DNA of 55,135 bases. Source: a virus. The DNA lies in UHGV virus genome UHGV-0258472; one strand, written 5' to 3'. The notes beneath the pieces are model-generated. The model was not told the DNA's origin. It saw only the letters and a program-made list of their open reading frames with translations, and ran no database searches. Made by a program: the position numbers and the translations under genes. Of this stretch, positions 16,429 through 51,622 are shown piece by piece. Within the stretch, counting starts at the first letter, position 1, and every line of letters starts with the position of its first letter.

Positions 16429-17076
16429 TTATGGCAGGTTTACGATCTTCGCGTCAACTACCACACCTATGATTTTAGATTCTGGATTCATAGGGATTGG
16501 CGGATACAGCGGATTGAGCGAACGTAAAAGCCTTTGACCTCCATCAATAACAAGCTGTTTAAACGTAGGTGTTTGCCCTTCCTCCAGTTGGGCTATAACC
16601 AGTTTTCCGTCAATAGCTGGCGCGTGCGGATCGACAAGTATCATCGTCCCCGCTGGTATACTCAATCCTTGCGGCGCGTTCATTGATTCGCCTTTAGCTA
16701 CCAGCCAATAACTATCATCTGAACAAATAACGCTAGTCGTAACGTGTGGTAATGTTGCTCGCCTTGTATCTTCCATATTGTTTACTGCGTCCTTCCAGTC
16801 AACAACCGGGTAACTACCTAAATCACGCGGCGGCGCTCCCGGTAATGTATTAGAAATAGAATCATCTATGACCATTCCATCGTGTGTAACAGTGAATTGC
16901 CGACGCCCAAGCGCCCGCATGATACGCGCAATATCTTCAAGATTCGGCTCGCGGCGACCGTTCAGCCAGTGTGACAGGCCGCCTTTAGTTATCCCCATGA
17001 GATCCGCGAGTGAATCCTGGCTCATGCCTTGCGCCCGCATGAGTTGCTTTGCTAAGTCGTACCATTTTGTTTTCAT
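16429..17076 (-). CDS. CI-type prophage repressor (XRE HTH plus LexA-like S24 peptidase domain)
   Basis: N-terminal HTH (SQDSLADLMGITKGGLSHWLNGRR) and C-terminal Ser-Lys autopeptidase region (GESM ... KQLVIDG); ATG at 17076. Confidence 0.85.
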   Translation of the reverse strand: MKTKWYDLAKQLMRAQGMSQDSLADLMGITKGGLSHWLNGRREPNLEDIARIMRALGRRQFTVTHDGMVIDDSISNTLPGAPPRDLGSYPVVDWKDAVNNMEDTRRATLPHVTTSVICSDDSYWLVAKGESMNAPQGLSIPAGTMILVDPHAPAIDGKLVIAQLEEGQTPTFKQLVIDGGQRLLRSLNPLYPPIPMNPESKIIGVVVDAKIVNLP

Positions 17077-17200: not shown

Positions 17201-17380
17201 AAAAAAGATAATGGAAAGCACAAAAAGGCACATACCTTAAAAGCTCTTTAAAAATCCGGTGTCGCTGCGAAGCGAAAAACAAATATCACGCAACGGCGGG
17301 ATCTGTTGAGCGGTCAGTCACTGCTATCTAATGCTAATGGGATACCCGCCAGCGCGTTCACTCTAATCATAGGAGAAAAT

Positions 17381-17626
17381 ATGTATTACGTGCGCAAGGC
17401 TTTTGATATTCGCCTGAATAACAATGATCCGGCGCAAAAACTCATCTTAATTGCACTGGCAACAAAGGCCGGATGCAACGGTAAAAGCGAAGTAACGCCG
17501 GAAGAGATCGCTGAAATGTGCGAAATTTCGTTACGAGATACTATCTCTGCACTTCATCAACTGAAAAGAAGCGGCCTAATCAGCCAGCTACCGGGTTTTT
17601 TCTGTGTTTATCAGTTAATGTTTTAG
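17381..17626 (+). CDS. small HTH protein, paralogous to the N-terminus of the replication initiator; first rightward gene (possible Cro-like role)
   Basis: ATG at 17381 with SD aggag; KLILIALATKA...EEIAEMCEIS...LHQLKRSGLI parallels the N-terminus of 17633..18634. Confidence 0.5.
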   Translation: MYYVRKAFDIRLNNNDPAQKLILIALATKAGCNGKSEVTPEEIAEMCEISLRDTISALHQLKRSGLISQLPGFFCVYQLMF

Positions 17627-17632
17627 TTCGTC

Positions 17633-18634
17633 ATGAGGTTAATGCTTATGAGTATGCGGCTAATGGTAGAGGTATTCCATACTGAGGTCGGTGATCCAAT
17701 GCACAAACTAGTGCTGTTGAAGTTAGCTGATAACGCTAATGATAACGGCGAGTGTTACCCTTCTTACCATCACATAGCAAAGGAGTGTGAGATCAGCAAA
17801 AGAACAGCTATGAGGGCTGTAGACTCACTTTGTGAAAAAGGGTTGTTGATTAAACAACCAAGATACTTAATCGGAGGAAAAGAGCAAACTAGTAATTTCT
17901 ATGTAATAGTCCTTCCGTCATTGCATGGTAGTGTCACTGTGACACCGGGGGTAGTGACACAGAGTCACCAGGGTAGTGACACAGAGTCACCGGGGGTAGT
18001 GACACAGAGTCACCCTAACCAGTCATATATAACCAGTAAAGAGAACATTAAAGATATACCCCCTTATATCCCCCCAAAAGAAAAACATGTCAATCAGGAT
18101 GGCATAAACGAAGCGGCGTTGCGTTGCCTGGCCTTCTACAACGACAAGGCAGGATGCAAGTGTCGTGATGCTAAGCCATTCATCGAACTACTGACAGAAA
18201 CAAAAACACGTAAGGCATATACTGAGGATGAGATCACGTTAGTAATTGAGTGGGCTTTAACGCAATGGCGTAGCCGTGGTGGAACACCTAAGCCTATCAA
18301 CATTTGCAGGGTAACTAAGTTTGATGGGTATTTGGCTGATGCTGAACAATGGCGCAAGCTATCAGCTACTGTAAACGCTGCCGACGTGGTGGAAGCATTT
18401 AACAGCACGTTTGACGGCCTGTTACCACCTGCCGAACTGGATCGTGATCTTGAGCGCAAGATCTATGCGTTCACTGACTACCTGAAAGACAAAAGCATTA
18501 ACGGCTTTGTCGCCTACTTCGAAACGTTCAAAAACACGGCTTCAGATTTTTACTTCGGCAATGGCTTTACTGCGACACTTGATTTCCTGCTTAAACCAAA
18601 AACGCTACGTGATACACGCGCTGGCGCTCTTTGA
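17633..18634 (+). CDS. replication initiator protein containing the origin iterons
   Basis: N-terminal winged-HTH-like region; iterons embedded in the coding sequence as in lambda O; true start may be ATG 17699 (SD gaggt). Confidence 0.65.
   Translation: MRLMLMSMRLMVEVFHTEVGDPMHKLVLLKLADNANDNGECYPSYHHIAKECEISKRTAMRAVDSLCEKGLLIKQPRYLIGGKEQTSNFYVIVLPSLHGSVTVTPGVVTQSHQGSDTESPGVVTQSHPNQSYITSKENIKDIPPYIPPKEKHVNQDGINEAALRCLAFYNDKAGCKCRDAKPFIELLTETKTRKAYTEDEITLVIEWALTQWRSRGGTPKPINICRVTKFDGYLADAEQWRKLSATVNAADVVEAFNSTFDGLLPPAELDRDLERKIYAFTDYLKDKSINGFVAYFETFKNTASDFYFGNGFTATLDFLLKPKTLRDTRAGAL
17928..18014. repeat. origin iterons: one degenerate plus three exact copies of GTAGTGACACAGAGTCACC
   Basis: Copies at 17928-17946 (degenerate), 17951-17969, 17974-17992, 17996-18014; each carries an internal GTGAC/GTCAC inverted repeat; AT-rich segment follows. 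Confidence 0.7.
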
Positions 18635-18766: not shown

Positions 18767-18868
18767 ATGGACGGTAAACACGTTTTCGCCCTGGCTTTTG
18801 CCATCGCTGCGGCAATCGCTGTTAACGTCGCTTTGTTCGGCGGTTTGTACCTTCTCGTTAATCCATAA
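18767..18868 (+). CDS. small hydrophobic peptide (33 aa)
   Basis: ATG at 18767 with SD agagagga; Ala/Leu-rich single TM-like translation. Confidence 0.4.
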   Translation: MDGKHVFALAFAIAAAIAVNVALFGGLYLLVNP

Positions 18869-19009: not shown

Positions 19010-19933
19010 ATGCGCAAGTTAACACATGATGAACATGTTGCGGCTATCGCTAAGGTTAATCATGATGTCGAAGTGCTTGGGGAAATTGTTAATAACAGGA
19101 CAAAAGTATCCTGCCGCTGCAAGGTTTGCAGTCACGAATGGTCGGCTAGACCTTACAATCTTAAAAGCGGTCACGGCTGCCCGAAATGCGCCGGAAAGAT
19201 GAAATTATCACACGAAGAACAGGTTGCCGCTATCGAGAAGGTTAATTCTGATGTCGAAGTGATTGGCGAAATAATAAACGGCTATACAAAAGCATTATGC
19301 CGCTGCAAAGTTTGTAATCACGAATGGTCGGCTAAACCTAACAACCTAAAAAACGGGCGCGGCTGCCCGAAATGTAAAGGTTTAAAAATCGCACAAAGAC
19401 GAACATTATCACACGAAGAACATTTATCCGCTATCACTAAGGTAAATCATGATATTGAAGTATTGGCAGAAATAATAAACGATAGGACAAAAGTATTATG
19501 TCGATGCAAGGTTTGTGATCATAAGTGGTCGCCTAGACCTTATGCTATTAAAAGCGGGCAAGGCTGCCCGAAATGTGCGAAACACGGTTTTTTGTCACAC
19601 GATTTCGGCAAACTTTACATCATGGTTGATGATCCTGAAGTGCCTACACAAATGAAAATCGGCGTAAGCGTTAATGAGAACAAGCGAAGAAATCGGGTAT
19701 TAAAAAGCGCACATAAATCAGGCGTTAGAATCCCTGATTTATGTGTCGTGAAAACGTTAGAAGGTCCAACCGAAAATATCCATGAATTAGAAAGCACGAT
19801 GCATAAATATTTCAGCAATTATAAAATTAACTTTCCTGTAAAATTTGATGGCAGCAATGAGTTTTTCTATTACAGGCCTGAAGTATTCGACATGGTAGAA
19901 GAAGCATATAAAGAGGTTGTTTGCTGCCAATGA
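19010..19933 (+). CDS. protein with three tandem zinc-ribbon repeats and a C-terminal T5orf172/GIY-YIG-like domain
   Basis: Three ~60-aa repeats each with CRCKVC ... GCPKC; C-terminal KLYIMVDD ... KIGVS ... NEFFYY resembling the GIY-YIG/T5orf172 pattern; ATG 19010 with SD aaggag. Confidence 0.6.
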   Translation: MRKLTHDEHVAAIAKVNHDVEVLGEIVNNRTKVSCRCKVCSHEWSARPYNLKSGHGCPKCAGKMKLSHEEQVAAIEKVNSDVEVIGEIINGYTKALCRCKVCNHEWSAKPNNLKNGRGCPKCKGLKIAQRRTLSHEEHLSAITKVNHDIEVLAEIINDRTKVLCRCKVCDHKWSPRPYAIKSGQGCPKCAKHGFLSHDFGKLYIMVDDPEVPTQMKIGVSVNENKRRNRVLKSAHKSGVRIPDLCVVKTLEGPTENIHELESTMHKYFSNYKINFPVKFDGSNEFFYYRPEVFDMVEEAYKEVVCCQ

Positions 19934-19966
19934 GTATACAAAATGTAAACCTGAGGAAATAACGTT

Positions 19967-21085
19967 ATGTCACAAAGAAAGATCAGCGACGAACAACTGA
20001 TCGCTGAATACAACAATGGGAAAACTTACAAGCAAATAGCCGAAGAATATGGAATGGCAAAACGCAACGTAGAACGCCTGGGCGCACGGCTGGCGAAGCG
20101 CGGTTTAATATCCACGCGCCGCGCACCTGGCTTCGGTGTTAACGGTGAATCATTGCTCGTTGATAAGGATGGCGATGTGATTATGCGCTGGATTAAAACA
20201 GCCCGTGATCGCGACGAAATGGAAAGGCTAATGCAATCGGCTTGCGACGCTTTCACGGAAGAGATACCACGCGCGGAGGCCGTGCCAGTGCCTGAAATTG
20301 ATTTCCAAAAAAGCCTGGCCCTTTATCCGGTATTCGATCTTCATATCGGTGCGCTTGCTCATAAATCTGAATGCGGTGAGAGCTACGACACCGGGATCGC
20401 TGAACGCGTGCTAAATGATTTCTTTGACTACGCGGTAGGCGCTGCGCCAATGTCTGAAAAGGCTGTTTTGCTTCTCGGCGGGGATGTGCTTCACACGGAC
20501 GGGCTATTGCCAGTGACACCATCAAGCAATCACGTCCTGGATTGCGATTCACGCTACGCAAAACTTGTTTATGTGGCGATCCGGTCGGTCCGGCGGGCGG
20601 TCGGGAAAATGTTGTTAAACCACAAGGACGTCGAGATCCAAGTGTTATCCGGCAATCACGACCAGTCAGGAATGATCTGGCTACGTGCTGCGCTGGCTGC
20701 TTTTTACGAAGATGAACCGCGTGTGACGGTTGATGTGTCCCCTGCTATCGTCCACCACACACAGTACGGAAAAACATTCCTTGCCTATCATCACGGTCAT
20801 ACTATCAAAAAACCCGAAAATTTGTTGGCGGCGTGCGTCTCTGACTGGCGGGAGGATTTCGGCAAGTCGTCGGCGGTTTACGCTCATTGCGGGCACTGGC
20901 ATCATCAACGGCTGATTGAATCATCGTTAGGCGTTGTCGAGTATCACGGCACATTAGCTGGCAAAGACGCTTATTCAACGAATGGCGGCTGGCGGTCGCG
21001 GCGGCTGGCGGCGGTAATAATTTACAGTCCTGATCACGGGGAGATCGGGCGCTTTGTTTATTACCCTGAATATTCCATTTTGTAA
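19967..21085 (+). CDS. HTH-domain protein fused to a calcineurin-like metallophosphoesterase
   Basis: N-terminal HTH; phosphoesterase motifs DLHIG, GGDVLHTDG, GNHDQ, HHGH, GHWHH; ATG 19967. Confidence 0.6.
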   Translation: MSQRKISDEQLIAEYNNGKTYKQIAEEYGMAKRNVERLGARLAKRGLISTRRAPGFGVNGESLLVDKDGDVIMRWIKTARDRDEMERLMQSACDAFTEEIPRAEAVPVPEIDFQKSLALYPVFDLHIGALAHKSECGESYDTGIAERVLNDFFDYAVGAAPMSEKAVLLLGGDVLHTDGLLPVTPSSNHVLDCDSRYAKLVYVAIRSVRRAVGKMLLNHKDVEIQVLSGNHDQSGMIWLRAALAAFYEDEPRVTVDVSPAIVHHTQYGKTFLAYHHGHTIKKPENLLAACVSDWREDFGKSSAVYAHCGHWHHQRLIESSLGVVEYHGTLAGKDAYSTNGGWRSRRLAAVIIYSPDHGEIGRFVYYPEYSIL

Positions 21086-21103
21086 ACCTGAGGAAATGCC
21101 ATA

Positions 21104-22525
21104 ATGGTGACTGAGCAAGTAAACTCATTACGCCAGGAACGTGAGGCGGCTGTGATAGGTGGCCTCCTGTTAGGCGGGCTTACTCCTAACGCGCAAGATG
21201 TTCTTGCTACGCTCGATCCTGAAGTCTTCACCATTCCACTATATAAACGAGCGTTTGAGATCATCCGGGCGCAAGCAAGAAACAGAAACCTTATTGACGC
21301 GCTGATGGTCGGTGATGAAATCGGTAACGAAAATTTTGTCCCGCTAATGCAGACGGCGCGATCGTGTCCATCTGCCGCCAACCTTAAGGGGTACGCCGCG
21401 CTATTACAGGAGGAATATCAGCGGCGGCAGATGTTGGAACTGATGGACGATATACGCTACAACCTGGAAAACGGGACACTTGAAGCTGTCAGGGAGACGA
21501 TGAAATATTTTGATTCCCGGTATTCAAAATTAAAAGTAACGAAAGACAAGATTATTCCGGTGCTGTTGCGCGACGCGGTACAGGAGTACACGGAAGTTTT
21601 AAGCAAACGTATGGAATGTGGTGTCAATTCTGACAATATCAAAACAGGGATAGATCCACTCGACGAAATGTTAGGCGGCATTAACGCTACTGATCTGGTA
21701 CTTATCGCCGGACGCCCTGGATCTGGTAAATCGGCGTTGGCGTTGGCAATTGCCCGCGCGGCGGCTGAACGTCCATACCCTGGCGGCGAAGGTCAACGGG
21801 TCGGCGTTTTGCTGTTCACGCTTGAAATGTCGCTAGATCAGATGACTGAACGCGCTATAGCTGGCGCTGGGAATTTATCAACGGATTGCCTACGTAATCC
21901 GGTAAAACTTGATGACGAAGGGTGGGCGCACGTTGCCCAGGGGATGAGCGCACTTGCCGATCTCGACGTGTGGATTGTTGACGCATCGCAATTGACAGTA
22001 GAGGAAATCCGCGCCACCACGGAACGGATGAAACAGGACCATCCCAACCTGGGAATGGTAATGATTGACTACATCGGGTTAATGAAGCTGGCTAAGGCCG
22101 AACGTCATGATCTCGCCGTAGGGCAATTGTCGTGGTCATTGAAAATGATGGCGAAAGAGTTGCGCGTGCCAGTGGCGGCGCTGGCGCAATTATCCCGCCG
22201 CGTTGAAGAACGACCGAACAAGCGCCCGAACAATTCCGATCTGCGTGATTCCGGTAATCTTGAACAAGACGCAGACCGGATCATCATGGTCTACCGCGAC
22301 GGCTACTACAACGAACAATCAGTTGCCCGCGAATACATGGAGATCATCGTTTCAAAAAACCGTCACGGGAAAACGGGGACTGTTTACCAGCGGTTTGACG
22401 ATAACGGCAACATTTTACCATGCGACCAGGCACGCGCGGCGTCAGCCTGCATACAGTCAATGCAACAACGTCCGGCAGCAAGCCGATTTTCCCCACGAAA
22501 TAACCAGAATAACGCATCTTTTTAA
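21104..22525 (+). CDS. DnaB-family replicative DNA helicase
   Basis: Walker A GRPGSGKS, DnaB-like N-terminal domain and RecA-like core motifs; ATG 21104. Confidence 0.85.
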   Translation: MVTEQVNSLRQEREAAVIGGLLLGGLTPNAQDVLATLDPEVFTIPLYKRAFEIIRAQARNRNLIDALMVGDEIGNENFVPLMQTARSCPSAANLKGYAALLQEEYQRRQMLELMDDIRYNLENGTLEAVRETMKYFDSRYSKLKVTKDKIIPVLLRDAVQEYTEVLSKRMECGVNSDNIKTGIDPLDEMLGGINATDLVLIAGRPGSGKSALALAIARAAAERPYPGGEGQRVGVLLFTLEMSLDQMTERAIAGAGNLSTDCLRNPVKLDDEGWAHVAQGMSALADLDVWIVDASQLTVEEIRATTERMKQDHPNLGMVMIDYIGLMKLAKAERHDLAVGQLSWSLKMMAKELRVPVAALAQLSRRVEERPNKRPNNSDLRDSGNLEQDADRIIMVYRDGYYNEQSVAREYMEIIVSKNRHGKTGTVYQRFDDNGNILPCDQARAASACIQSMQQRPAASRFSPRNNQNNASF

Positions 22526-24188: not shown

Positions 24189-24848
24189 ATGAATAAACTT
24201 AAAGCAATTGGCGTAATTAGCCACCGCACTAACCCTGAGTGTTACCCATCGTTTGAGGTAACAACATGCCGCACAGAATATAATTTTGGAACATACTTTC
24301 TATTGGGTGTTCGCGCTGACACTGGCGGCACTTATTCTGTTATGGCGGCAAGCTGGAAATTTGATAAATACGCTAATTTATCTAACAAGGATGATGACGG
24401 CATGAATAAAGAAAGCGAAATTATTGATGAATTGATCGAAGATGAGCGGCATGATTGCGATAAGCCGGAAGTTACGGAATGGAAACAGGGAGAAAAGCCG
24501 CCGCGCGGCGTGTGGCTTGATTGTATTGGATTGGCAAGTGATAGAGTGATTGATGTAGTTAAGTTTTTCTACATTGGCGATAAGTGGTCTATTGCTCACA
24601 GTAAGTTAGAAACTGATATTGAAACACCGATTGCATGGAAACAATACTCGTATCGAATTCATATTGATCCGAAAGAAAAAGCACTGGCGCAAATTGCGTT
24701 TGCGCTTGCTACAAAGGTTATTGGTGAGGATGCGGCAAAAGAGATTGACTTTAACCGCGACAACGAATTTTCGTGCGATTATCGCAATATGGCGCAAGCA
24801 ATTATTGATGGATGTATCGGACACGTTGAATACACGGGGAAAAGATAA
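24189..24848 (+). CDS. hypothetical protein (219 aa)
   Basis: ATG 24189 with SD gagg. Confidence 0.5.
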   Translation: MNKLKAIGVISHRTNPECYPSFEVTTCRTEYNFGTYFLLGVRADTGGTYSVMAASWKFDKYANLSNKDDDGMNKESEIIDELIEDERHDCDKPEVTEWKQGEKPPRGVWLDCIGLASDRVIDVVKFFYIGDKWSIAHSKLETDIETPIAWKQYSYRIHIDPKEKALAQIAFALATKVIGEDAAKEIDFNRDNEFSCDYRNMAQAIIDGCIGHVEYTGKR

Positions 24849-25066
24849 TGGATAAGATCGGGACAATCCTTATTAATCGTGAGCAAGTGCAAAAAATGTT
24901 AGGCGGACTTAGCAAGTCCGCATTTTTTAAGCTCGTTAAAAAATGGAAAGATGCGGGAACTCCTTTCCCTGAACCTGTTAAGGGGATGCCAGCATTAAAG
25001 CGCGGCGGATCTCTTTACCGCTATCAGGACGTTATTTCATTTTGTAAATCAATGGGCTTCATGTAG
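24848..25066 (+). CDS. putative excisionase / AlpA-like small DNA-binding protein
   Basis: Small basic protein convergent with integrase; size and position typical of Xis/AlpA-type regulators. Confidence 0.4.
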   Translation: MDKIGTILINREQVQKMLGGLSKSAFFKLVKKWKDAGTPFPEPVKGMPALKRGGSLYRYQDVISFCKSMGFM

Positions 25067-26223
25067 TAATCAGCCAGTTTATTCATCGCCTCTATTTGCT
25101 CCTTCACGTAATCATACTGATCATATATAGCCATCATTCCCGCCAGTTTATGACCTAAAACCTTTTCTGCTACGTGCGGCGCAATGCCAAGCGCTGAAAG
25201 GTTTGTCCTTACAGTGCGGCGCAAGTCGTGACACGACCACGGCTCGCCGCCCATCCTTAGCATCAAATCCCTTGCGGCTGTTTTCGGCACGCTCCTGTCT
25301 ACCGCTTCATCCCTTCCAGAAAGCACGGGAACGAAGATAAAATTAAAGCCGTGCAAATCCATAGCTTCACGCAATAAATCAACGCTAACGGCGGATAAAC
25401 CGCGTTTAAACTCGTTTCTGTTCTTACTCAATGCGCCCGGCACGGTCCACACACAGTTATCAAGATCGAAATGCTCGCGCCTTGCGTTTGTTAGTTCGCT
25501 TGTTCTGCATCCGGTGAATATAATCAGCTTCATCAATATCTGATTTAGCCGCGCCATTTTTGAACTGTCTATAATGCTGATTAGATGGTGAATCTCTTGT
25601 ATTGATAAGACGCGTTTCCTTTGTGCCGGGTTTTTGCCTACGTCTTTCACGCGTAGCAATGATATGTCGTCACGCTCCACGCGGCGGCGGCGCATGGCAT
25701 ATTTTATCACCGCCTTCATCCTGTTTAAGACTATCCCTGCCTGAACGGGCGCGCCACCATTAGCTACCTTTCTAAAAATACCCTCCCACATTATGGAGTC
25801 CATATCATCGACGATATAGCTACCGCATGGTCTGACAATGTGCTTACTTAGCATCGCCTCGACTTGCTTATAGTTGACCATGTTTCTTGCCTGCGGTGAT
25901 TCCATGTACTCCCTAACAATATCTTCAATCGTTGCCCGTGTCGTAACGCGGGAAAAGTTCATTCTTTTTACGATCGATGGATCTCGTCCTGAGTTTAAGA
26001 CTTCCTTATGCTCCGCCACCGCCGCGCGGGCTTCTTTGAGCGTTATTTCTCCGTAAGTGCCAATCTTCATCCGTCGCGGCTTGCCGTTGAATCGGTAGCG
26101 ATACTGGAAAGATATAACGCCGTGCGGGCTTATCCTGGCAGACAATCCGCCCGCGTCCGGGACTTCTTCCGGGCCGTCATATGGCTTGCCGTGGATGTTT
26201 CGTAATTTGGTATCTGTAAGCAT
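25024..26223 (-). CDS. int: tyrosine site-specific integrase
   Basis: C-terminal catalytic region with R ... HDLRRT ... Y; N-terminal arm-binding-like domain; start set at ATG 26223 (ORF-track 26292 is GTG). Confidence 0.8.
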   Translation of the reverse strand: MLTDTKLRNIHGKPYDGPEEVPDAGGLSARISPHGVISFQYRYRFNGKPRRMKIGTYGEITLKEARAAVAEHKEVLNSGRDPSIVKRMNFSRVTTRATIEDIVREYMESPQARNMVNYKQVEAMLSKHIVRPCGSYIVDDMDSIMWEGIFRKVANGGAPVQAGIVLNRMKAVIKYAMRRRRVERDDISLLRVKDVGKNPAQRKRVLSIQEIHHLISIIDSSKMARLNQILMKLIIFTGCRTSELTNARREHFDLDNCVWTVPGALSKNRNEFKRGLSAVSVDLLREAMDLHGFNFIFVPVLSGRDEAVDRSVPKTAARDLMLRMGGEPWSCHDLRRTVRTNLSALGIAPHVAEKVLGHKLAGMMAIYDQYDYVKEQIEAMNKLADYYMKPIDLQNEITS

Positions 26224-26227
26224 AAAT

Positions 26228-26479
26228 TTGGTCACTATTTGGTACACACATTTCACGCATGGATAGTAACACGATAGAAAACGATATGACACGATAGAAT
26301 AAATATTTCTTTTAAAATCAAGGTGAAACGGTGACGATGTGACACGATATGAAATGATAGAAATGGCGTTATCCGCTTATCTTTTGAATGGATAACTTAA
26401 TGAAAAATTCATTTGTATTCAATGTGTTATGTTTTGTTTTTGTTTTTTATTTATCATTTTGGTCACTATTTGGTACACA
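26228..26479. other. candidate attP region
   Basis: 21-bp direct repeat TTGGTCACTATTTGGTACACA at 26228-26248 and 26459-26479; ACACGATAGAA-like repeats between; inverted GTTATCC ... GGATAAC at 26368-26396; directly upstream of int. Confidence 0.4.
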
Positions 26480-43602: not shown

Positions 43603-44039
43603 GTTTTGTAACCTTCTACAATCTCTTTATAAATATCGTCAGCGTTGTTTGGATCTTCGAATGCCTTGCGCAAAAATTCCGGCTCCGCGTTTGGGTCCCA
43701 ATATTTACCTTTTCCAGTACCGCCGCCGAATTCAACCCCTTCGCTAGTCTTGCCGAAATGTTCGCGCGGCTGTCCTTTTAATTTACCTGGCATATTGTGC
43801 ACCCATTCAGCATACCTGGCCGTATATCCCAGCCGTAACTGCATACCCTCCGCCGTGCTACCTATATACTGAAATTGGCTGTTAATTAAAAAACCCGTAT
43901 CAACGGGGGTCATGTTCGCCGCGAAGCCACCAGCCAGCATCCCTACTCGCCATAACACCTCATGAGTTTTCTTATCTGTGATTTCCTTTAGCTCCTGCTT
44001 TAATCGCTCCCTGACACGTTTAACACCCTTGATAGGCAT
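43599..44039 (-). CDS. HK97 gp10-like head-tail joining protein
   Basis: Size, position and a VDTGxL-type motif; ATG 44039 with SD aggggg. Confidence 0.5.
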   Translation of the reverse strand: MPIKGVKRVRERLKQELKEITDKKTHEVLWRVGMLAGGFAANMTPVDTGFLINSQFQYIGSTAEGMQLRLGYTARYAEWVHNMPGKLKGQPREHFGKTSEGVEFGGGTGKGKYWDPNAEPEFLRKAFEDPNNADDIYKEIVEGYKT

Positions 44040-44041
44040 AA

Positions 44042-44416
44042 TTAACCCCCTGTCACGATCTTATAATCCGGCGTGTCATTAAACATGCTCATGTCCCATT
44101 CAACGATCCCGGTTATAAAGTTGGCCCCAGCCGCCAGCGGGTCAGCAATAGCAGTTGTGTCTCCAGTGGCAAGCATCCACCCTTTTCCCGGGCGCTGCAC
44201 TGGCTGCATCTTGTGAAGCAGTTCGGTAAATACGGTTATTGTATTGCTAACCTCATTGCCGTTTGTGTCTGTTGCCGTGCCGTCGGTGCGCTCCCATGAG
44301 CAATCAATCAGGTATGGTGCACCGTATACATCGGAGTTTGTCCAGTCGTCACGCGTTACGGGGTAAATGGTGGCTAATGCCTTGTAGCTGAATCGCGCGA
44401 TCTTACTCATAGCCAT
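44042..44416 (-). CDS. putative head closure / head-tail adaptor protein
   Basis: Position; ORF-track start is TTG, ATG at 44416 or 44410. Confidence 0.4.
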   Translation of the reverse strand: MAMSKIARFSYKALATIYPVTRDDWTNSDVYGAPYLIDCSWERTDGTATDTNGNEVSNTITVFTELLHKMQPVQRPGKGWMLATGDTTAIADPLAAGANFITGIVEWDMSMFNDTPDYKIVTGG

Positions 44417-44588
44417 AGCTCCATTTAACAATTTTCGGATGGGTTTTCGCCACGCGCGGGCAAAGAATTACCCATTCGCCAGCATCATTGAGATAGGCGG
44501 CGACCTGTCGCCCTGTGTCAGTCTTCACCCATACGCGGGTAAACGGCTTCGGCATTAGTGGTTTTGGTAGCGTTAGATCATTCCACAT
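44403..44588 (-). CDS. hypothetical small protein (61 aa)
   Basis: ATG 44588 with SD gggagg. Confidence 0.4.
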   Translation of the reverse strand: MWNDLTLPKPLMPKPFTRVWVKTDTGRQVAAYLNDAGEWVILCPRVAKTHPKIVKWSYGYE

Positions 44589-44590
44589 GG

Positions 44591-44977
44591 TTACATCCTC
44601 CCACTCTTACCAATCCATAGTCCGGCGTGCGCGGTGGCTTCTGGATCTGCTGGAATCAGTTCTGCTGTGCAATTATGCTTGTCAATCGAGCGTAGCAACG
44701 AGCAAGCCGCCCTCCATTTTTTATTAAAATCAACATAGCGGTAGGACTGGCTTGCACCGTTCGGACCTGTGTGTGAGGAAACGTATTTATTCGCCTGTGT
44801 GAGTCCTAACAGCCCGATCAGATAAAGCTGAATTAATGTTGCAGTGGATGCCGGATAGTTAGCATCAAGGCATTCATTAACGCTATTTGCCTGCTCCACC
44901 AGCAAAGATAAGATAACGTCTGGCAGGTCAATACCCTGGCTTTCAAGATATTCCCGCGCCTGTTCTGTAGTGACCAT
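44591..44977 (-). CDS. putative head-tail connector protein
   Basis: Start set at ATG 44977 (SD ggag) downstream of capsid-gene terminator. Confidence 0.45.
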   Translation of the reverse strand: MVTTEQAREYLESQGIDLPDVILSLLVEQANSVNECLDANYPASTATLIQLYLIGLLGLTQANKYVSSHTGPNGASQSYRYVDFNKKWRAACSLLRSIDKHNCTAELIPADPEATAHAGLWIGKSGRM

Positions 44978-45003
44978 TTTGTTTACTCCACATACAAAAA
45001 AAA

Positions 45004-45024
45004 TCCCCGGCATTGCGCCGGGGA
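45004..45024 (-). terminator. rho-independent terminator downstream of major capsid gene
   Basis: tccccggcgcaatgccgggga hairpin followed by an 8-9 T run on minus strand. Confidence 0.6.
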
Positions 45025-45043
45025 GTTACAGGAAACAAGGAAA

Positions 45044-46096
45044 TTATTTGTGACCGTAAACGACACCGGAACGGCCCAGCATGTCGCAGGTGATTTGTAA
45101 ACCTTCGGCAGACATGATTTTGAAGTTGTAGTTATCAGTCGGCATAAAGCGCGGCAGAGGCACTACGCCAGTAGTCATACCAACCAGCGGGGTGATGACG
45201 TTGCGGCGGCGTTGGTAAGCAATGAACTCGTTACCTTTCAGCGCAAAGGTCTGACGGATTTCTTTAACCGGAATGAACGGTTTAACGATATTCAGTACAG
45301 TACCAACAACAGTACCGTTAGCAATGTGCGGCGCTGCCAGGTTAGCCATAATTTCAGGGGACACCCACATGAGATCATACTGGTCAACGCGGTTGTTACG
45401 GGCCATGACACCGAATGCACCAGTGGTGAAGAATTTGATGATGTCATCGAATCCGTCAGTGGTGAGGTCTTCGGAGGTCATGACTAGTTGCTGGGTATTG
45501 CGGTGATTTTTAATACCCTGACCAGGTTTACCGTTGACATTGATTTTTGCGTTACCGTTAAGGTAATAATCAACGCGTGCCTTGTTGAATTTTTGCAGTT
45601 TCAGGCGCTGGCTATCCAGTGCAAGGTCAATACCAACAGTTTTCAGACCTTCGGAATGACGCCAGTTGACACCGTAACCCGCTGCGAACATCGGGATCGG
45701 GTCGCCATCGCTGCCATATTCAGTGTGATCAAAGCCATGCGGGGCTTGACCATCAATACTAACGACGACTTCATCGTTAATATCACCGGATACGCTGTAC
45801 ATTTTCTCCGTTTTACCGATTGGTAATACTGTTTGCACAGCCATCAGGTCGTTTACAATTTCAATACCAGTCTCTTCGGTGCTCATTTCGATAATCTGAT
45901 TATCGATAGCTTTCCAAAATTCCTGATCGAAGCCGCCAACGGCATTACATGCCAGGATGTCAGCGGTCATGTTTGCCATATTTGCGGCAATAAGAGCGCC
46001 GTCACGATCATTGAACATGTTGCGCTGCGCCCACAGGTGATCCCACTGAGCACGAATGCGGCTGTTGGTAGCAAGGTTGTGTTTATTAAACAACAT
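45044..46096 (-). CDS. major capsid protein
   Basis: 350 aa; strongest SD of the head cluster (agaggtg); followed by strong terminator; position after scaffold/decoration genes. Confidence 0.65.
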   Translation of the reverse strand: MLFNKHNLATNSRIRAQWDHLWAQRNMFNDRDGALIAANMANMTADILACNAVGGFDQEFWKAIDNQIIEMSTEETGIEIVNDLMAVQTVLPIGKTEKMYSVSGDINDEVVVSIDGQAPHGFDHTEYGSDGDPIPMFAAGYGVNWRHSEGLKTVGIDLALDSQRLKLQKFNKARVDYYLNGNAKINVNGKPGQGIKNHRNTQQLVMTSEDLTTDGFDDIIKFFTTGAFGVMARNNRVDQYDLMWVSPEIMANLAAPHIANGTVVGTVLNIVKPFIPVKEIRQTFALKGNEFIAYQRRRNVITPLVGMTTGVVPLPRFMPTDNYNFKIMSAEGLQITCDMLGRSGVVYGHK

Positions 46097-46115
46097 AGTT
46101 TTTCACCTCTTATTA

Positions 46116-46517
46116 TTATGCAACGCGGACACGTACAAAATCAGCCGCTTCAAGGGTTACAGCTTCCTGGCAGAAAGCGAAAACTGTTTCATCAGATGCT
46201 ACCAATTTAAATCCACCTTCACCGATGGTGATGGCAGCGTCTTTGGTGTAAGCACCCTCAGGAAGCAGGATTGCGAATTCGCGGGCTTCTTCTGCGTAGT
46301 CAGCGACCACGGAATGACCAGCCGGAATTGCATCCTCAATACCCAAGCCTTCATGGTATGCCGGATTAACAACATAAATACGGCCTTCGGTATCGGTGGC
46401 GGCAACGAATTTACCAGCCGTCATTTTAACCGGGGTGCCTGGTTTAAGCTCTGCGGCAGATACTGCGGTTTCGGTAATAGATTTACCGTCAATATTCACA
46501 CGACGAAAACGGGCCAT
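46116..46517 (-). CDS. head decoration / capsid-associated protein
   Basis: 133 aa immediately upstream of major capsid; strong SD agaggtg. Confidence 0.45.
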   Translation of the reverse strand: MARFRRVNIDGKSITETAVSAAELKPGTPVKMTAGKFVAATDTEGRIYVVNPAYHEGLGIEDAIPAGHSVVADYAEEAREFAILLPEGAYTKDAAITIGEGGFKLVASDETVFAFCQEAVTLEAADFVRVRVA

Positions 46518-46527
46518 AATTCACCTC

Positions 46528-47823
46528 TTATGCGAAATAGTTGTTAATGTCAGGGGTAGCAGGTTTATTTCCACCAGCGGCGGAGTTTGCCGCCATTGGT
46601 GCTGCTTTACCCAGGGATTTAAACATTGCTTCTAATGCTTCACCGCTTAAAGCGTTAGCAACAATTTCGCCGTGAACTTTTGCTACTGCGGCGCGTTTTT
46701 CTGCTTCTTCTTTATTTGCGTTTGCTGCGATCTCTTCTTTGATCGCTTTCTGATTGGTCTGTAATTCTTCAACGCTTGCCCGCACTGGTTTTAATGCCTC
46801 TGCTACTGCATTAGCGATATTAGCGGCTAAGCCTTCGTTAATTTCTTTTACCAGTTCGGCGCGTTCTTCTTTGGTCAAAGGCATGGGATCGTCCTCCGAT
46901 TTATTGGCCTTAATTTTTTCATTCAGGGAGAAAAGATTAGAAAGGTGTTCAGCGAACTGCGTAAACCAGGATTTACTTTCCTCGTTGGTTGCAAGCTCGC
47001 CATTATTGAGAATAATTTTATCAGCCTGTTTTTCATATGCGCAAACTTGAGCACTTTCAGTATTAGTGGCGATCGTCACTTCTTTATCAGTGAAGTCCAC
47101 CACATACACATAATCGGCATCAGGGAATAATTCCCGCGCGGCGTCGGTTAATTGTTTCTCAAGTGTGCGGTAGCTGTTTTCTTTCATTGCCACCGTCATT
47201 AACGGTTTCGCCTGGTCAGTATTAACCATCAGGCCAACGCCTTGCTCTGGTGAAGCGGCTGGCGGCTCATGCAGCAAAATAGCGTCATGGTCGATAGACA
47301 TGATTTTCACCACATGGTCGGCACCCTGGGCTTTCATCTCTTCAGTAGCTGGCATACGTTGACGATATACAGCGACGGATGACCAGATCGGATCTTTGCT
47401 TTCTCCTTTCTCCAGTGCTTCAAGTCTGCTTAATAATTCGCGGCCTTGCTCTGAATGGCTGGCGGTTTCAACATCCACCCATTTTTCCACATAAACACGA
47501 TTGCCGCGTAATTCAACGTTTCTGTTCCACGCTCCACAAAAACCCGTGTTTAATCCTTCCGGGCTAAATGCGGAAACAAATTTACCGTCCACGGTAGGAT
47601 GACCCAGCGGGGCAAGCGTACCCTCCAGTGACTGGTAATTAGCGATAATTTCAGCTTCCGGGTAATATTCCCGATTCATTACGATGTTAAATGGTAGTGT
47701 ATATGACGGGACAACGATATGCTCGCGACCGTTGTATGTTTCACGGCGTATGGTATTAGCGGTTAATTTAGTATTAACCTGAATCAATTCTTTACTCACG
47801 GTTTTACTCCCAATCTTCGCCAT
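46528..47823 (-). CDS. putative scaffold / prohead maturation protein
   Basis: ~430 aa with long C-terminal helical charged region; between Mu F-like and capsid genes; start set at ATG 47823 (ORF-track TTG 47838). Confidence 0.45.
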   Translation of the reverse strand: MAKIGSKTVSKELIQVNTKLTANTIRRETYNGREHIVVPSYTLPFNIVMNREYYPEAEIIANYQSLEGTLAPLGHPTVDGKFVSAFSPEGLNTGFCGAWNRNVELRGNRVYVEKWVDVETASHSEQGRELLSRLEALEKGESKDPIWSSVAVYRQRMPATEEMKAQGADHVVKIMSIDHDAILLHEPPAASPEQGVGLMVNTDQAKPLMTVAMKENSYRTLEKQLTDAARELFPDADYVYVVDFTDKEVTIATNTESAQVCAYEKQADKIILNNGELATNEESKSWFTQFAEHLSNLFSLNEKIKANKSEDDPMPLTKEERAELVKEINEGLAANIANAVAEALKPVRASVEELQTNQKAIKEEIAANANKEEAEKRAAVAKVHGEIVANALSGEALEAMFKSLGKAAPMAANSAAGGNKPATPDINNYFA

Positions 47824-48748
47824 ATTTAGCGTGCGCAACCTTATAGTTTTCTTGCGCCCGATCTAATATTCGTTTGTTTAATATGTTACCGTCTTCGTCA
47901 ACCAATACGGTAATCGTGCTACATTTGCAGTTAATTGAATTTGGGGATCTGCTCCACCATTCGCGCTGCTCATCTATGGTGTATGTTTTCCCGTGCCGCT
48001 GCGCGTGCGATAGCCTGGTAGTCGGTGACAATGCCGAAATGTGCATTTGCATAGTGCGCAGATTAAGCTCTTCTGTCGCCGCTTCTGCCTCATCCATACG
48101 TGCTGTGCGTAACGCTGTGCATATTTCAGTTCTGGCAATACGTTTGCACCTGTATAGCGGCAATTGCGTTTCCTGCTGCAATGTGCGCGCTATTTCCAGT
48201 GGATTTAAACCACGGGCCATACCTTCGGTTAATCGCCGGGCCATATCCTTCTTGATCTGTGCTGTTAGCCCGCGCATTTCCTCAAATACACGGGTACGAA
48301 CAAGGGCAAGACGCGTGCGGTAAGTCGTACTTGATAGCACGGCGGATACATCAGGATAAGCGCTTGAGTAAGTAACAGACTGGTTGGCGAGGTTGGCATA
48401 TTCCTGTGAAGTGCCGCGCTGATATGCCACCTTCACGTATTCCTGCCAAAACCAAAAACTTTCCGGGTCGGTTAGCTCGAATATTTCATCAATCATGTCG
48501 CTGGCGTCTTCCAGCAAATCATGCAATTCGTCAATGTAGATCTGGAAAGTGTATTTCTTATTAACAGCCAGGCTATATTGTATTCTGTCCAGTATGGCGA
48601 TATATGGATCGGCTATTTTCTTCAGGCAGGATTTGAAACGCTTAATAGCTCCCGACCGTAACTTACCTGTCATGGTCGGGTCTTCGGTGTTAGATGGCAT
48701 TATCGCGGCGGGAGGTATTCGCCTGATTATTTTCTTCACCTTCATCAT
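47804..48748 (-). CDS. Mu F-like minor head (head morphogenesis) protein
   Basis: Size and position immediately after portal gene; resemblance to Mu F / SPP1 gp7 family from memory. Confidence 0.65.
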   Translation of the reverse strand: MMKVKKIIRRIPPAAIMPSNTEDPTMTGKLRSGAIKRFKSCLKKIADPYIAILDRIQYSLAVNKKYTFQIYIDELHDLLEDASDMIDEIFELTDPESFWFWQEYVKVAYQRGTSQEYANLANQSVTYSSAYPDVSAVLSSTTYRTRLALVRTRVFEEMRGLTAQIKKDMARRLTEGMARGLNPLEIARTLQQETQLPLYRCKRIARTEICTALRTARMDEAEAATEELNLRTMQMHISALSPTTRLSHAQRHGKTYTIDEQREWWSRSPNSINCKCSTITVLVDEDGNILNKRILDRAQENYKVAHAKYGEDWE

Positions 48749-50063
48749 CGTTTTCCTCGTCTTCCAGTTCTATTTCACTAGCTGGGCCATCGTATCCGGC
48801 AGCTTCGCGGATCTCGTCACCGCTAAATATTTCCTCACCAGTAGCAAGACAAGCCTGATTGATTTGCGCCATTTTGTGTGCCGCTTCCAGTAGCTCGGCT
48901 TTTGTCATGGCGTTAAGGTCATCCCATAAAACTGATACATCGACTGGCATACTGATAAGGCGGAGATCTGCCATCTTGCGGAATAGTTCCTCAAGCTCGC
49001 CTCCTATTTCCTCGCGGCGGGTCATACAGCGATTATTGAAGTAGCGGAGGTCTTCAGTTGATGCGCGTTCACCCTGCTGATTCCCAACCAGGATACGCGT
49101 CGGGATGTCGATACCAGCGGCGGCAGTTTGCAGGTTTACGTCATAGGTTGCAGATGGATCGGCTACGGCAGTTACCAGCGGGCTAACACTTGCCCCTTGT
49201 AATGCCATCATCACATCATTACCCCTGTTCATTTCTGCTGCTGCCTCGTTGAATTTCTCGCGTAGCTCTGTAACGTCGCAATCGTATGTTGCAGCCAGGG
49301 AACGGAAATCAATCTCTTTATCGAACGAGATAGCCAGTTGACGAGCGGCATTTTTCAGGAATGACTCACCGCTACCGCCTTCCACTTTCTCCAGCGAAAC
49401 GAAAGCGTTATAGGACGGCTCAAGGAAAGCGATAGCATCATCAGAATAATCACCGAAGATGAATATACGGTCTGGATGAATCTTTCTTGCTATGGTCTTA
49501 CTGTTGATGCGCTCCTTGTATTCCCACCATGTAGGCAGGCCATAGTTTTCTTTATCCGGGTTTTCTTCGAAGTCCTTCGGCGTAAGAGCACCAGCCCACG
49601 CAGGGGTAAATTTGGCAATGCCTACGCCTTTTGTCACTGGCTGATCCCACGGCTGGTTATCTCTGACATGAATTAACAGACCAGCATAACGACCAATGAG
49701 GCGGCGGCGATCGCATTCAGCTATGACGCGCCAGAAACGATTATCAAATTGCTTTTTAATTTCTCTTTCCCACGGCGTTTCCGTTTCTGCTTTCTCGTCT
49801 TCCGTACCTTCGATCAGCGTTGGCCTGGTGCGCCAGCACGTTGTAATGATCTTCTCAATAGCACCGTGAGCAATACCACCGCGACGATACAGCTTGTATA
49901 AATCGTCATAGGTGATTTCTTCTTTGAATCCGTATTCACTCCACGCAGCATCACGTTTTGCATCAATACCCATTGAGAATGGGTTAACGGCTGCATAGCG
50001 GGCGAAGGCCGCCTGGCGTTGTGACAAGGCAGCATTAACCGCCAATTCTAAATTGGATGGCAT
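48690..50063 (-). CDS. portal protein
   Basis: ~457 aa, acidic C-terminus, immediately downstream of terminase large subunit; start set at ATG 50063 (SD aggag). Confidence 0.65.
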   Translation of the reverse strand: MPSNLELAVNAALSQRQAAFARYAAVNPFSMGIDAKRDAAWSEYGFKEEITYDDLYKLYRRGGIAHGAIEKIITTCWRTRPTLIEGTEDEKAETETPWEREIKKQFDNRFWRVIAECDRRRLIGRYAGLLIHVRDNQPWDQPVTKGVGIAKFTPAWAGALTPKDFEENPDKENYGLPTWWEYKERINSKTIARKIHPDRIFIFGDYSDDAIAFLEPSYNAFVSLEKVEGGSGESFLKNAARQLAISFDKEIDFRSLAATYDCDVTELREKFNEAAAEMNRGNDVMMALQGASVSPLVTAVADPSATYDVNLQTAAAGIDIPTRILVGNQQGERASTEDLRYFNNRCMTRREEIGGELEELFRKMADLRLISMPVDVSVLWDDLNAMTKAELLEAAHKMAQINQACLATGEEIFSGDEIREAAGYDGPASEIELEDEENDDEGEENNQANTSRRDNAI

Positions 50064-50141
50064 AATGTTTACTCCTGAATACATGTTTACGCGTTGCTAC
50101 GCGAAAAATAGAAAAATTCGTGAGGGATTGTGAGGCAGATT

Positions 50142-51620
50142 TTAAAATCCGCGCAGGCGCTTAGGTAACATGAGGCCCATTGCCTGTGGCTGGCTTAATT
50201 CAGTGATACCCCATACCATTGCGTCGAGGCGGTCAGGGGATTTTTTAGCGGTAGCTGGCACGTATTCCATCATTTGATTTTCCAGCGTGTACAGGCTGCC
50301 TGTGTGGGCCACCCTTCCTTGTGCATACAGTGCCGATATTGGCTCGGCGCGGGCGAATTTACCTTTGCTTGCGTGCACCTTAACAATGCGGCCTTTGAAT
50401 CCGGCATTACGTAGCGTGGCCTCCGCCATTTCGCCGCCCTGGTTGGTTTCTATAACTATCGCGTCAGCTTCATGGATGTTGTAAGCGTTCATTGATGCTT
50501 GCGCCCAGTCGTTAGGAGACATGCGGCCTGAGTAGTCACCGTCTACAGAATACTGTGCGTACTTGCCGCCACCATAAGCGGAACATGCCACGATCCCGGT
50601 TTCGTCCGACTCATCAGATGATGTTGTTGCCGGGTCGATGGCTATCACCGTGCGGATCCTGTCCTGCGTTATCTGCATCCGGTGCGCGGCGGTTATCATC
50701 GCTTCATTCCACAACGCGCCCTCTTCGTCGAATCTGCGCGGGCGCTGCATGTACTGGGCCTCAAATGACCTTCTGTGTGCCTTCAGTCCGGCTTCATGGC
50801 TGTCATTGTGCTTTTTAGGCCATAGCCAGCCGTCTGGCAGGTTGTGAGCAATAGGAATAGCGAATTCGTTTTCCGGGTACAGATCCCAATAGTCGATGCT
50901 GTTGTCGATCTTCACTGGCAGGTTAAGGTGATACCACTTCTCACCGCTGCCGCCGCGTAACAGGTAGCCGGACAAATCATCGTAGTGGATGCGCTGCATA
51001 ATGACGATAACAGGCGTCTCCTGTACGGCAAGACGTGAAGCGAGCGTGTCGTTGTAGTTGTTCTTTACCTTATCCCGCATCACATCAGAGTAAGCGTCAG
51101 CGGGCTTTAATGGGTCGTCGATAATTAACGCGCCGTTGAAGCCTGGCTCCATGTAACCAGCACGAAAACCCGTGATCTGACCGTGTGACGATGCGGCATA
51201 TATCCCGCCGCCCTGTTCCGTCCACCACATTGATTTGGAGTTGGCATCATTGCGGATCTTCATAGGCCACATTGCTTGATACTCTGGCGAGCAAATCATA
51301 TTTCTGACTGTCGACGAATTGAGTAATGCGAGGTTGTCGGAATAGGAGACGTGAAGAAAACGCGTGCGGGGATTTATTGCGAGGGACCGCGCCATCATAT
51401 TGATAGTTGCGATCATGGTCTTGCCGTACCCTGGGGGAATGTTAATGATGAGGCGGGTAATCTCACCATTGATAACGCGTTGCAGTGCATCGCGGATAGC
51501 TATGTGATGGCCTGAGACAAACATCTTCGTACCGTTTGCTTGCTTGTAGAAATAGCGGTTGAAGAACAGGCCATCGTTTTCACATTTGGATTGTATAATC
51601 CTTTCTTTAAGCGACAACAT
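50142..51620 (-). CDS. terminase large subunit
   Basis: Walker A PPGYGKT, ATPase and C-terminal nuclease-like region; ATG 51620 with SD gaggtg (ORF-track first codon is GTG). Confidence 0.85.
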   Translation of the reverse strand: MLSLKERIIQSKCENDGLFFNRYFYKQANGTKMFVSGHHIAIRDALQRVINGEITRLIINIPPGYGKTMIATINMMARSLAINPRTRFLHVSYSDNLALLNSSTVRNMICSPEYQAMWPMKIRNDANSKSMWWTEQGGGIYAASSHGQITGFRAGYMEPGFNGALIIDDPLKPADAYSDVMRDKVKNNYNDTLASRLAVQETPVIVIMQRIHYDDLSGYLLRGGSGEKWYHLNLPVKIDNSIDYWDLYPENEFAIPIAHNLPDGWLWPKKHNDSHEAGLKAHRRSFEAQYMQRPRRFDEEGALWNEAMITAAHRMQITQDRIRTVIAIDPATTSSDESDETGIVACSAYGGGKYAQYSVDGDYSGRMSPNDWAQASMNAYNIHEADAIVIETNQGGEMAEATLRNAGFKGRIVKVHASKGKFARAEPISALYAQGRVAHTGSLYTLENQMMEYVPATAKKSPDRLDAMVWGITELSQPQAMGLMLPKRLRGF

Positions 51621-51622
51621 AA

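Follow-up and report, generated by a model that had tools for sequence, protein, structure and literature searches.

A helix-turn-helix metallophosphoesterase of the PHROG 704 family, probably a DNA nuclease, in the replication region of a temperate phage

The window analyzed here, the whole 55,135-nucleotide stretch of the virus genome UHGV-0258472, encodes a protein of 372 amino acids that joins an N-terminal helix-turn-helix (HTH) to a calcineurin-like phosphoesterase core. An earlier note, made from the sequence alone, had placed its open reading frame (ORF) at positions 19967 to 21085, directly before the replicative helicase gene, and both statements held: the ORF was found exactly as described, and a DnaB-type gene starts just past its stop codon (Table 1). 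The product matches PHROG 704, a family labeled "DNA repair exonuclease", at E 9.1e-138, with residues 4 to 368 aligned on profile positions 2 to 387 of 390, and there is a weaker match to PHROG 284, labeled "exonuclease". It is an ordinary member of its family, which is very large, has already been catalogued and is a core gene of T1-like phages.

Table 1. Genes, protein domains and motifs at the phosphoesterase locus, in window coordinates.
Feature	Position	Strand	Details
cI-like repressor	16429-17076	-	
Small HTH_36 protein	17306-17626	+	106 aa
O-like replication initiator	17633-18634	+	333 aa; HTH_36 E 6.5e-15; PHROG replication-initiation families; upstream of the phosphoesterase gene, same operon
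Hydrophobic ORF MDGKHVFALAFAIAAAIAVNVALFGGLYLLVNP	18767-18868	+	33 aa; own GAGG ribosome-binding site; between the O-like and endonuclease genes
Homing-endonuclease-like gene, free-standing	19010-19933	+	307 aa; three treble-clef zinc-ribbon repeats (DUF4379/CapR), C-terminal T5orf172/GIY-YIG-like domain
Translation-initiation region of the phosphoesterase gene	19944-19960	+	17-nt block TGTAAACCTGAGGAAAT, including the GAGG Shine-Dalgarno
HTH-metallophosphoesterase ORF	19967-21085	+	372 aa plus stop; ATG start; PHROG 704 member
N-terminal three-helix HTH	19988-20098	+	residues 8-44; AlphaFold2, Pfam, family-level matches, LrpA profile match
Beta-hairpin and helix	20132-20257	+	residues 56-80 and 82-97; alignment, AlphaFold2 model
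Calcineurin-like (binuclear metallophosphoesterase) core	20306-21061	+	residues 114-365
Motif I, D124-L-H126	20336-20344	+	motif scan; DNA gat ctt cat
Motif II, G172-D-V-L-H176 (Mre11-type GDxxH)	20480-20494	+	motif scan, checked on DNA
Invariant family-specific loop, T184-P-x-S-x-H-x-L-D-x-D-x-R196	20516-20554	+	91-sequence alignment
Motif III, G229-N-H-D232	20651-20662	+	motif scan, checked on DNA
Motif IV, H275-H-G-H278	20789-20800	+	motif scan, checked on DNA
Motif V, G309-H-W-H312	20891-20902	+	motif scan, checked on DNA
DnaB-type replicative helicase	21104-22525	+	DnaB_C E 1.9e-75; starts 18 nt past the phosphoesterase stop
Integrase	25024-26292	opposite to the phosphoesterase gene	

The architecture of the protein was examined in an AlphaFold2 (AF2) model built on an alignment of 91 homologues with identities down to 24% (mean predicted local distance difference test [pLDDT] 84.6, predicted template modeling score 0.73). 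The N-terminal HTH-like segment recognized in the earlier note is weak in the protein alone, where Pfam matches over residues 10 to 58 reach only E 0.011 to 0.27, all under the gathering scores, but it is well supported across the family: HTH_1 is found in 43 of the 91 members and HTH_50 in 22, further members match Sigma70_r4_2, Fis or GerE, and the family profile reaches LrpA in the PDB at E 0.006 to 0.018. AF2 places its three helices at residues 8 to 16, 21 to 28 and 32 to 44, with pLDDT near 90, and the N-terminus itself, MSQRKISDEQLI, is kept in aligned homologues as far off as phage T1. The hairpin and helix that follow contain the invariant residues G60, W75 and K77. Homologues from Campylobacter phages are without the HTH, yet they keep both the hairpin-helix and the phosphoesterase core, and the hairpin-helix is therefore part of the conserved core. 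In the model, no capping domain follows the phosphoesterase core, and the chain stops 7 residues past residue 365. Longer family members, scanned for informative alternative fusions, yielded extra HTH domains or nothing.

The active site is intact and conserved. The ordered motifs DxH, GDxxH, GNHD, HHGH and GHxH that the earlier note had listed each occur once and in canonical order, and the residues H126, H176, N230, H231, D232, H276, G277, G309 and H312 are invariant in all 91 homologues, while D124 and D173 are present in 90 of them; this conservation is far beyond chance. In the AF2 model, every motif falls at the C-terminal end of a beta-strand, and the model confirms the calcineurin fold for the core. 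Directly after motif II, all 91 homologues share an invariant loop, TPxSxHxLDxDxR, and the AF2 model gives pLDDT below 50 for residues 180 to 192 within this conserved stretch. Residues 184 to 196 probably contact the substrate or a partner; conserved but modeled at low confidence, this loop may be a binding element peculiar to PHROG 704.

Comparison of the modeled fold with solved structures suggests that the nearest relatives are DNA nucleases, by a small margin over other metallophosphoesterases. The fold comparison figures were 14.4 for the proofreading exonuclease DP1 of PolD, 14.3 each for MJ0936 and Staphylococcus aureus SbcD, 13.3 for Mre11, 13.1 for LpxH, 12.8 for Escherichia coli SbcD, 11 to 12.8 for polymerase B-subunits, 12.1 for Rv0805, 9.5 for PP5 and 9.1 for the Pseudomonas putida nuclease MPE. 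Foldseek ranked Thermotoga maritima Mre11 first (E 1.8e-8), followed by DP1, then by the class III cyclic nucleoside monophosphate phosphodiesterase Rv0805 in third place, and then by Methanocaldococcus jannaschii Mre11 and E. coli SbcD. The earlier note had raised an Mre11/SbcD-like nuclease among several options, and this option gains support from the GDxxH form of motif II, which aligns with GDLLH of T. maritima Mre11, from the structural neighbors and from the label of PHROG 704. An annotation in the GenBank record of T1 also credits the homologue there with an HHpred match of 99% to SbcD 4LTY, which we did not reproduce.

The resemblance to these enzymes is one of core and active site, and it does not extend to their accessory parts. 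The nuclease-type GDxxH and the GNHD motif are common to our protein and to Mre11/SbcD (T. maritima Mre11 2Q8U/4O43; E. coli SbcD 4LTY/6S6V); our protein differs in lacking their C-terminal capping domain, in carrying an N-terminal HTH and hairpin instead, in an identity of only 13 to 18%, and in having no Rad50/SbcC ATPase near its gene or among the window ORFs scanned. Relative to PolD DP1 (5IHE) and the eukaryotic polymerase B-subunits, it lacks the OB fold and again has the HTH and hairpin at its N-terminus, and neither a DP2-type partner nor a phage polymerase was present among the window ORFs scanned. Another structural match, P. putida MPE (6NVO), is encoded with the Lhr helicase; like the window protein, it is a stand-alone metallophosphoesterase whose gene adjoins a helicase gene, and it acts as an Mn2+-dependent DNA nuclease.

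Homologues are common among phages. A tblastn search found them in 2,044 of 50,697 phage records (about 4%), with at least 80% of the query covered in 1,957, and the taxa include Drexlerviridae, Dhillonvirus, Jerseyvirus, Casjensviridae, N4-like roseophages, Campylobacter Fletchervirus, and Vibrio, Yersinia and Proteus phages. Within Drexlerviridae, identity is 55% to T1 orf16 and 60 to 67% to the Hanrivervirus and Webervirus types. A profile search of 1.84 billion cluster representatives returned 6,753 clusters at E ≤ 1e-3 and 2,917 at E ≤ 1e-30, so that the family comprises about 6,750 metagenomic clusters at 50% identity; most are 375 to 400 aa long and therefore share the architecture of the window protein. 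The family has no dedicated Pfam or NCBIfam model. Prophage copies, mostly labeled "hypothetical protein", occur in 35 of 5,426 RefSeq E. coli genomes, and near-identical sequences have been deposited, some of them as "DNA repair exonuclease" or "metallophosphoesterase". T1 orf16 (CPTT1_064, AAP49983.1) has the same build of HTH, hairpin and metallophosphoesterase and the same invariant residues. The window gene differs in its place, set between the O-like gene and DnaB in a temperate phage; the PHROG 704 gene of Drexlerviridae stands ahead of the lysis cassette, and the exonuclease-holin-endolysin-spanin module to which it belongs is found in 508 of 522 members (PMC13164509). The questions raised here concern the biology of PHROG 704 as a whole, and nothing about them is peculiar to the window.

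The genomic setting of the gene is shared by its close relatives. Over this region the window is 86 to 92% identical in nucleotide sequence to Escherichia phages MagusPhagus, mEp010, mEp013, mEp021, mEp044, mEp515 and mEp554, and with them it belongs to the mEp-immI group, Nus-dependent temperate coliphages that their describers call non-lambdoid (PMC11893012). The place of the phosphoesterase gene between the O-like gene and DnaB is fixed throughout this group and specific to it. The closest kin of the helicase outside the group are P22-type gp12 proteins, at 57% identity, and in P22, gene 12 (the helicase) adjoins the O-like gene 18 on its downstream side, so that the phosphoesterase gene splits what is otherwise a P22-like initiator-helicase pair. 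The earlier note had called this placement unusual for a lambdoid phage. That judgment stands insofar as the gene interrupts such a pair, but it does not stand as a peculiarity of this genome, given that the arrangement is fixed in all relatives, the family is common and the group is described as non-lambdoid. The nearest kin of the phosphoesterase outside the group are found in virulent T1-like phages (Drexlerviridae, 55 to 67%), and the replication region thus resembles a patchwork of T1-like and P22-like elements. Between the genes, a search for promoters and terminators turned up nothing convincing, from which we infer co-transcription from the early rightward promoter.

Start signals on both sides of the phosphoesterase gene are unusually alike. 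Its GAGG Shine-Dalgarno sequence lies 10 nt 5' of the start codon, within a 17-nt block, TGTAAACCTGAGGAAAT, that recurs as an exact direct repeat at 21081 to 21097 (+); the two copies flank the ORF, and the second overlaps its stop codon and lies directly 5' of the DnaB start. Two exact copies stand in the window against 0.01 expected by chance. Related repeats, TGTAAAC[C/A][T/G]GAGG, precede both genes in MagusPhagus, mEp021 and mEp010; the two copies are identical in the window and in MagusPhagus but not in mEp021 and mEp010. Because they differ in these last two phages, we read the repeat as probably a shared ribosome-binding or translational-coupling region. An alternative origin as the scar of a cassette insertion, or as a product of concerted evolution, was rejected, as the copies show no consistent co-variation.

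Several further features of the surrounding region may be recorded. The two consecutive ORFs at 17306 to 17626 and 17633 to 18634 each carry an HTH_36/replication-initiator N-terminal domain, the second also has an O-like C-terminal part, and the pair looks like a tandem duplication or split of the origin-binding module; in the mEp021 annotation, the first is a MarR-like HTH protein. The strongly hydrophobic 33-aa ORF has a close counterpart in MagusPhagus, and the mEp010 annotation places a 102-nt ORF at the corresponding site. The endonuclease gene is AT-richer than its neighbors (GC 0.39 to 0.41, against 0.52 for the phosphoesterase gene and 0.50 to 0.55 for DnaB), MagusPhagus lacks it at that site, and mEp021 has a 495-aa zinc-ribbon protein there. 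In mEp021 and mEp010, an HNH endonuclease, absent from the window, is inserted between the phosphoesterase gene and DnaB, and in T1, Salmonella phage S101 and a Vibrio phage, an HNH/homing endonuclease gene lies directly 3' of the homologue; homing elements appear to have targeted the phosphoesterase gene repeatedly. Downstream of DnaB come a MarR-like gene and, further on, NinB. Between NinB and the integrase, a 219-aa ORF (24189 to 24848, +) has no PHROG match at E ≤ 1e-8, and head genes (PHROGs 760, 758 and 771) occupy positions 44000 to 52000 (-).

Neither the window nor the other lineages offer the protein an obvious partner. Among the window ORFs scanned, there was no Rad50/SbcC-like ATPase and no DNA polymerase, and all ORFs of at least 400 aa are tail, head, portal, terminase, integrase or helicase genes. 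The recombination genes are Erf, SSB, NinB and NinG/Rap, and no exonuclease of the RecE or lambda-Exo type was identified among the ORFs scanned. A conserved partner (Rad50/SbcC, polymerase, helicase or loader) was also sought in the sampled contexts of homologues, and none was found. In T1, the homologue neighbors a Dam methylase, small ORFs, an HNH gene and lysis genes, and no DNA polymerase is annotated in the examined parts of the record; in Bas83 and RcWata, it adjoins lysis genes, and in a Vibrio phage, an endolysin and an HNH gene. Elsewhere it lies near a polynucleotide kinase and a dNMP kinase (a Yersinia phage), near thymidylate synthase, a putative deoxycytidylate deaminase, a dCMP deaminase and a dGTP diphosphohydrolase domain (N4-like phages), near a ligase and a Holliday-junction resolvase (a Campylobacter phage), near a dCMP deaminase and a dUTPase (a Proteus phage), and, on one metagenomic contig, near tail genes. 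Polynucleotide kinase and dNMP kinase are often found near the gene in Drexlerviridae as well (PMC13164509). The sole common theme of these neighborhoods is DNA and nucleotide metabolism, and there is no obligate partner.

We consider it quite probable that the protein is a DNA nuclease. The more specific proposition, that independently of Rad50 it acts on the replication and recombination intermediates of this temperate phage, we hold at even weight. Several lines of evidence together suggest a metal-dependent exo- or endonuclease that acts on DNA with no Rad50 clamp and is tethered there by its own HTH: the catalytic residues are invariant, the closest structures are nucleases, motif II has the Mre11 form, the protein carries a DNA-binding domain, the gene behaves as a core gene, and its setting is one of replication or DNA metabolism. 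Consistent with this, the window phage and all its relatives carry the gene in the replication operon, and elsewhere it lies among genes of replication, repair or nucleotide metabolism. Phage precedent exists in T4 gp46/47, an Mre11-type nuclease that serves recombination-dependent replication and host DNA breakdown.

If so, we infer that the substrate is DNA, that catalysis depends on metal and that the role lies in replication or recombination, and the following sequence of events can be proposed. Transcribed together with the O-like initiator and DnaB in the early rightward operon, the protein would act as a stand-alone nuclease of the Mre11/SbcD/DP1 branch of binuclear metallophosphoesterases, brought to DNA by its N-terminal HTH. 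Two metal ions, probably Mn2+, would be bound by D124, H126, D173, N230, H276, H310 and H312, while H176 and H231 would hold the scissile phosphate and the leaving group in place. With this site the nuclease would cleave or trim ends, nicks or hairpins in the DNA intermediates of phage replication and recombination. It would thereby assist the recombination genes of the window (Erf, SSB, NinB and Rap) and help the phage to synthesize its DNA efficiently.

Among tested proteins, the nearest analogues are two mycobacteriophage proteins of the same structural branch, neither of them a member of the family; they show nuclease activity and a part in phage DNA replication. Bxb1 gp47 is a recombination directionality factor that is also required for DNA replication, and its top structural neighbors, like those of the window protein, are Mre11 and DP1 (PMC11795197). 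A10ZJ24 gp48 is an early-expressed DNase that degrades linear, plasmid and genomic DNA in vitro and the DNA of the host in vivo, and phage DNA replication in Mycobacterium tuberculosis requires it (PMC12287305). Both are, like the window protein, stand-alone metallophosphoesterases without a Rad50 partner that are encoded among replication genes; they differ in being about 254 aa long, with motif I at residue 10 and no HTH or hairpin extension. Membership of the window protein in the Bxb1 gp47 family was considered and rejected, as it misses phrog_221, while gp47 matches phrog_221 and not phrog_704. A role as a recombination directionality factor finds no support here, and the window integrase is on the opposite strand.

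Several observations weigh against the nuclease interpretation. These two precedents belong to another family, PHROG 221, and an hhalign comparison with Bxb1 gp47 gave a local match around motifs IV and V at E 0.025 and a probability of 2%. The literature yielded no experimental work on any PHROG 704 member. The gene neighborhood varies between phage lineages, and T1 has a separate RecE-Erf-SSB module with a RecE-type exonuclease already beside Erf, so that a missing partner for the annealing protein is too simple a description of the window protein. At the sequence level, the Pfam Metallophos model (PF00149) does not match the protein at E ≤ 1 and matches just 5 of the 91 relatives, weakly (best E 4.4e-4), while the family profile reaches T. 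maritima Mre11 in the PDB (HMMER) at a nonsignificant E of 0.14 to 0.68. Direct searches of the protein against Pfam, NCBIfam and the PDB likewise gave weak HTH matches and no phosphoesterase match, so that the enzyme domain called for profile and structure comparison, and the sole phosphoesterase matches in the PDB at the sequence level are marginal; the one at E 0.14 aligns motifs I, II and V, with GDflH on GDLLH. PHROG 704 is too divergent for the Pfam Metallophos model, and the tests of fold and motif override that failure.

The alternative that survives best, although we judge it unlikely, is that the protein degrades host DNA, an early chromosome breakdown that would supply nucleotides and silence host genes, including defense genes. 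T1 does degrade host DNA, and homologues adjoin nucleotide-salvage genes in other lineages. A10ZJ24 gp48 offers the precedent of a solo phage metallophosphoesterase with this activity (PMC12287305), although it comes from the phrog_221 family. The window phage is, however, temperate, with an integrase and a cI-like repressor, and expression of an indiscriminate host-genome nuclease from an early operon, before the decision between lysis and lysogeny, would be hard to square with lysogeny; moreover, the HTH suggests targeted rather than bulk DNA binding.

Less probable still is a replisome-associated exonuclease resembling DP1, which would edit, or remove primers or flaps, at the fork together with DnaB and the host polymerase. 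The position of the gene between those for initiator and helicase fits such a role, which has been proposed for Bxb1 gp47 (PMC11795197). Against it, adjacency to the helicase is not kept outside the mEp-immI group, no polymerase was seen among the window ORFs scanned or among the annotations in the examined parts of the T1 record, proofreading is already built into host Pol III, and the protein has neither the OB domain of DP1 nor a DP2 partner.

The earlier note had also suggested a phosphodiesterase acting on cyclic nucleotides or 2',3'-cyclic phosphates, and a lambda NinI-like phosphatase, and neither fares well. An anti-defense phosphodiesterase, directed at the cyclic (oligo)nucleotide signals of CBASS, Pycsar, type III CRISPR or Thoeris or at 2',3'-cyclic phosphate ends, would be compatible with the fold but seems highly improbable to us. 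Mycobacteriophage D29 gp66 is reported to use cyclic AMP as a substrate (PMC12287305), but a fused DNA-binding domain would have no obvious use with a small-molecule substrate, nucleases take the higher structural ranks by a small margin, and persistence as a core gene (the Drexlerviridae module above) is unlike the behavior of variable accessory anti-defense loci. We found no literature report of PHROG 704 as an anti-defense factor, and PADLOC gave no match and no link to known defense systems. For the protein or family in T1 and Drexlerviridae, the literature search found no escape mutants or CRISPR interference fitness data.

Least credible of the enzymatic and regulatory options is a transcription regulator acting through the HTH, or a protein phosphatase of the NinI type, in which the phosphoesterase domain would be regulatory. 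Lambdoid phages do carry the calcineurin-type phosphatase NinI, a member of the PPP family that shares the superfamily fold with our protein and is likewise encoded in the early right region of a temperate coliphage; close homologues are named "Rrf2 family transcriptional regulator" in some sources, and the Yersinia phage homologue is labeled "winged helix-turn-helix domain-containing protein". The protein nevertheless fails the PPP motif test, having neither GDxxDRG (its motif II reads GDVLHTDG) nor GNHE, while its conserved catalytic residues argue for an active enzyme and the Campylobacter phage homologues keep the core without the HTH. A helicase loader (lambda P, DnaC or SPP1 G39P) was rejected, as no Pfam, PHROG or NCBIfam loader model matched and homologues also occur in phages without an adjoining DnaB-type helicase gene.

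A broader proposal follows from the solo-nuclease interpretation, and we put it forward tentatively, as a possibility that we rate below that interpretation itself. PHROG 704 might constitute a distinct and widespread "self-targeting" class of Mre11-type nucleases, in which the HTH and hairpin replace the Rad50 clamp, which act at specific sites on phage DNA, and which are essential for replication or for packageable concatemers in many unrelated lineages. Present in about 4% of deposited phage genomes, PHROG 704 is among the commoner phage genes without a tested function, and several phages that carry the family are used for therapy. Understanding an Mre11-type nuclease that works without Rad50, together with the target of its HTH, would explain a core step of replication and recombination in T1-like and many other phages.

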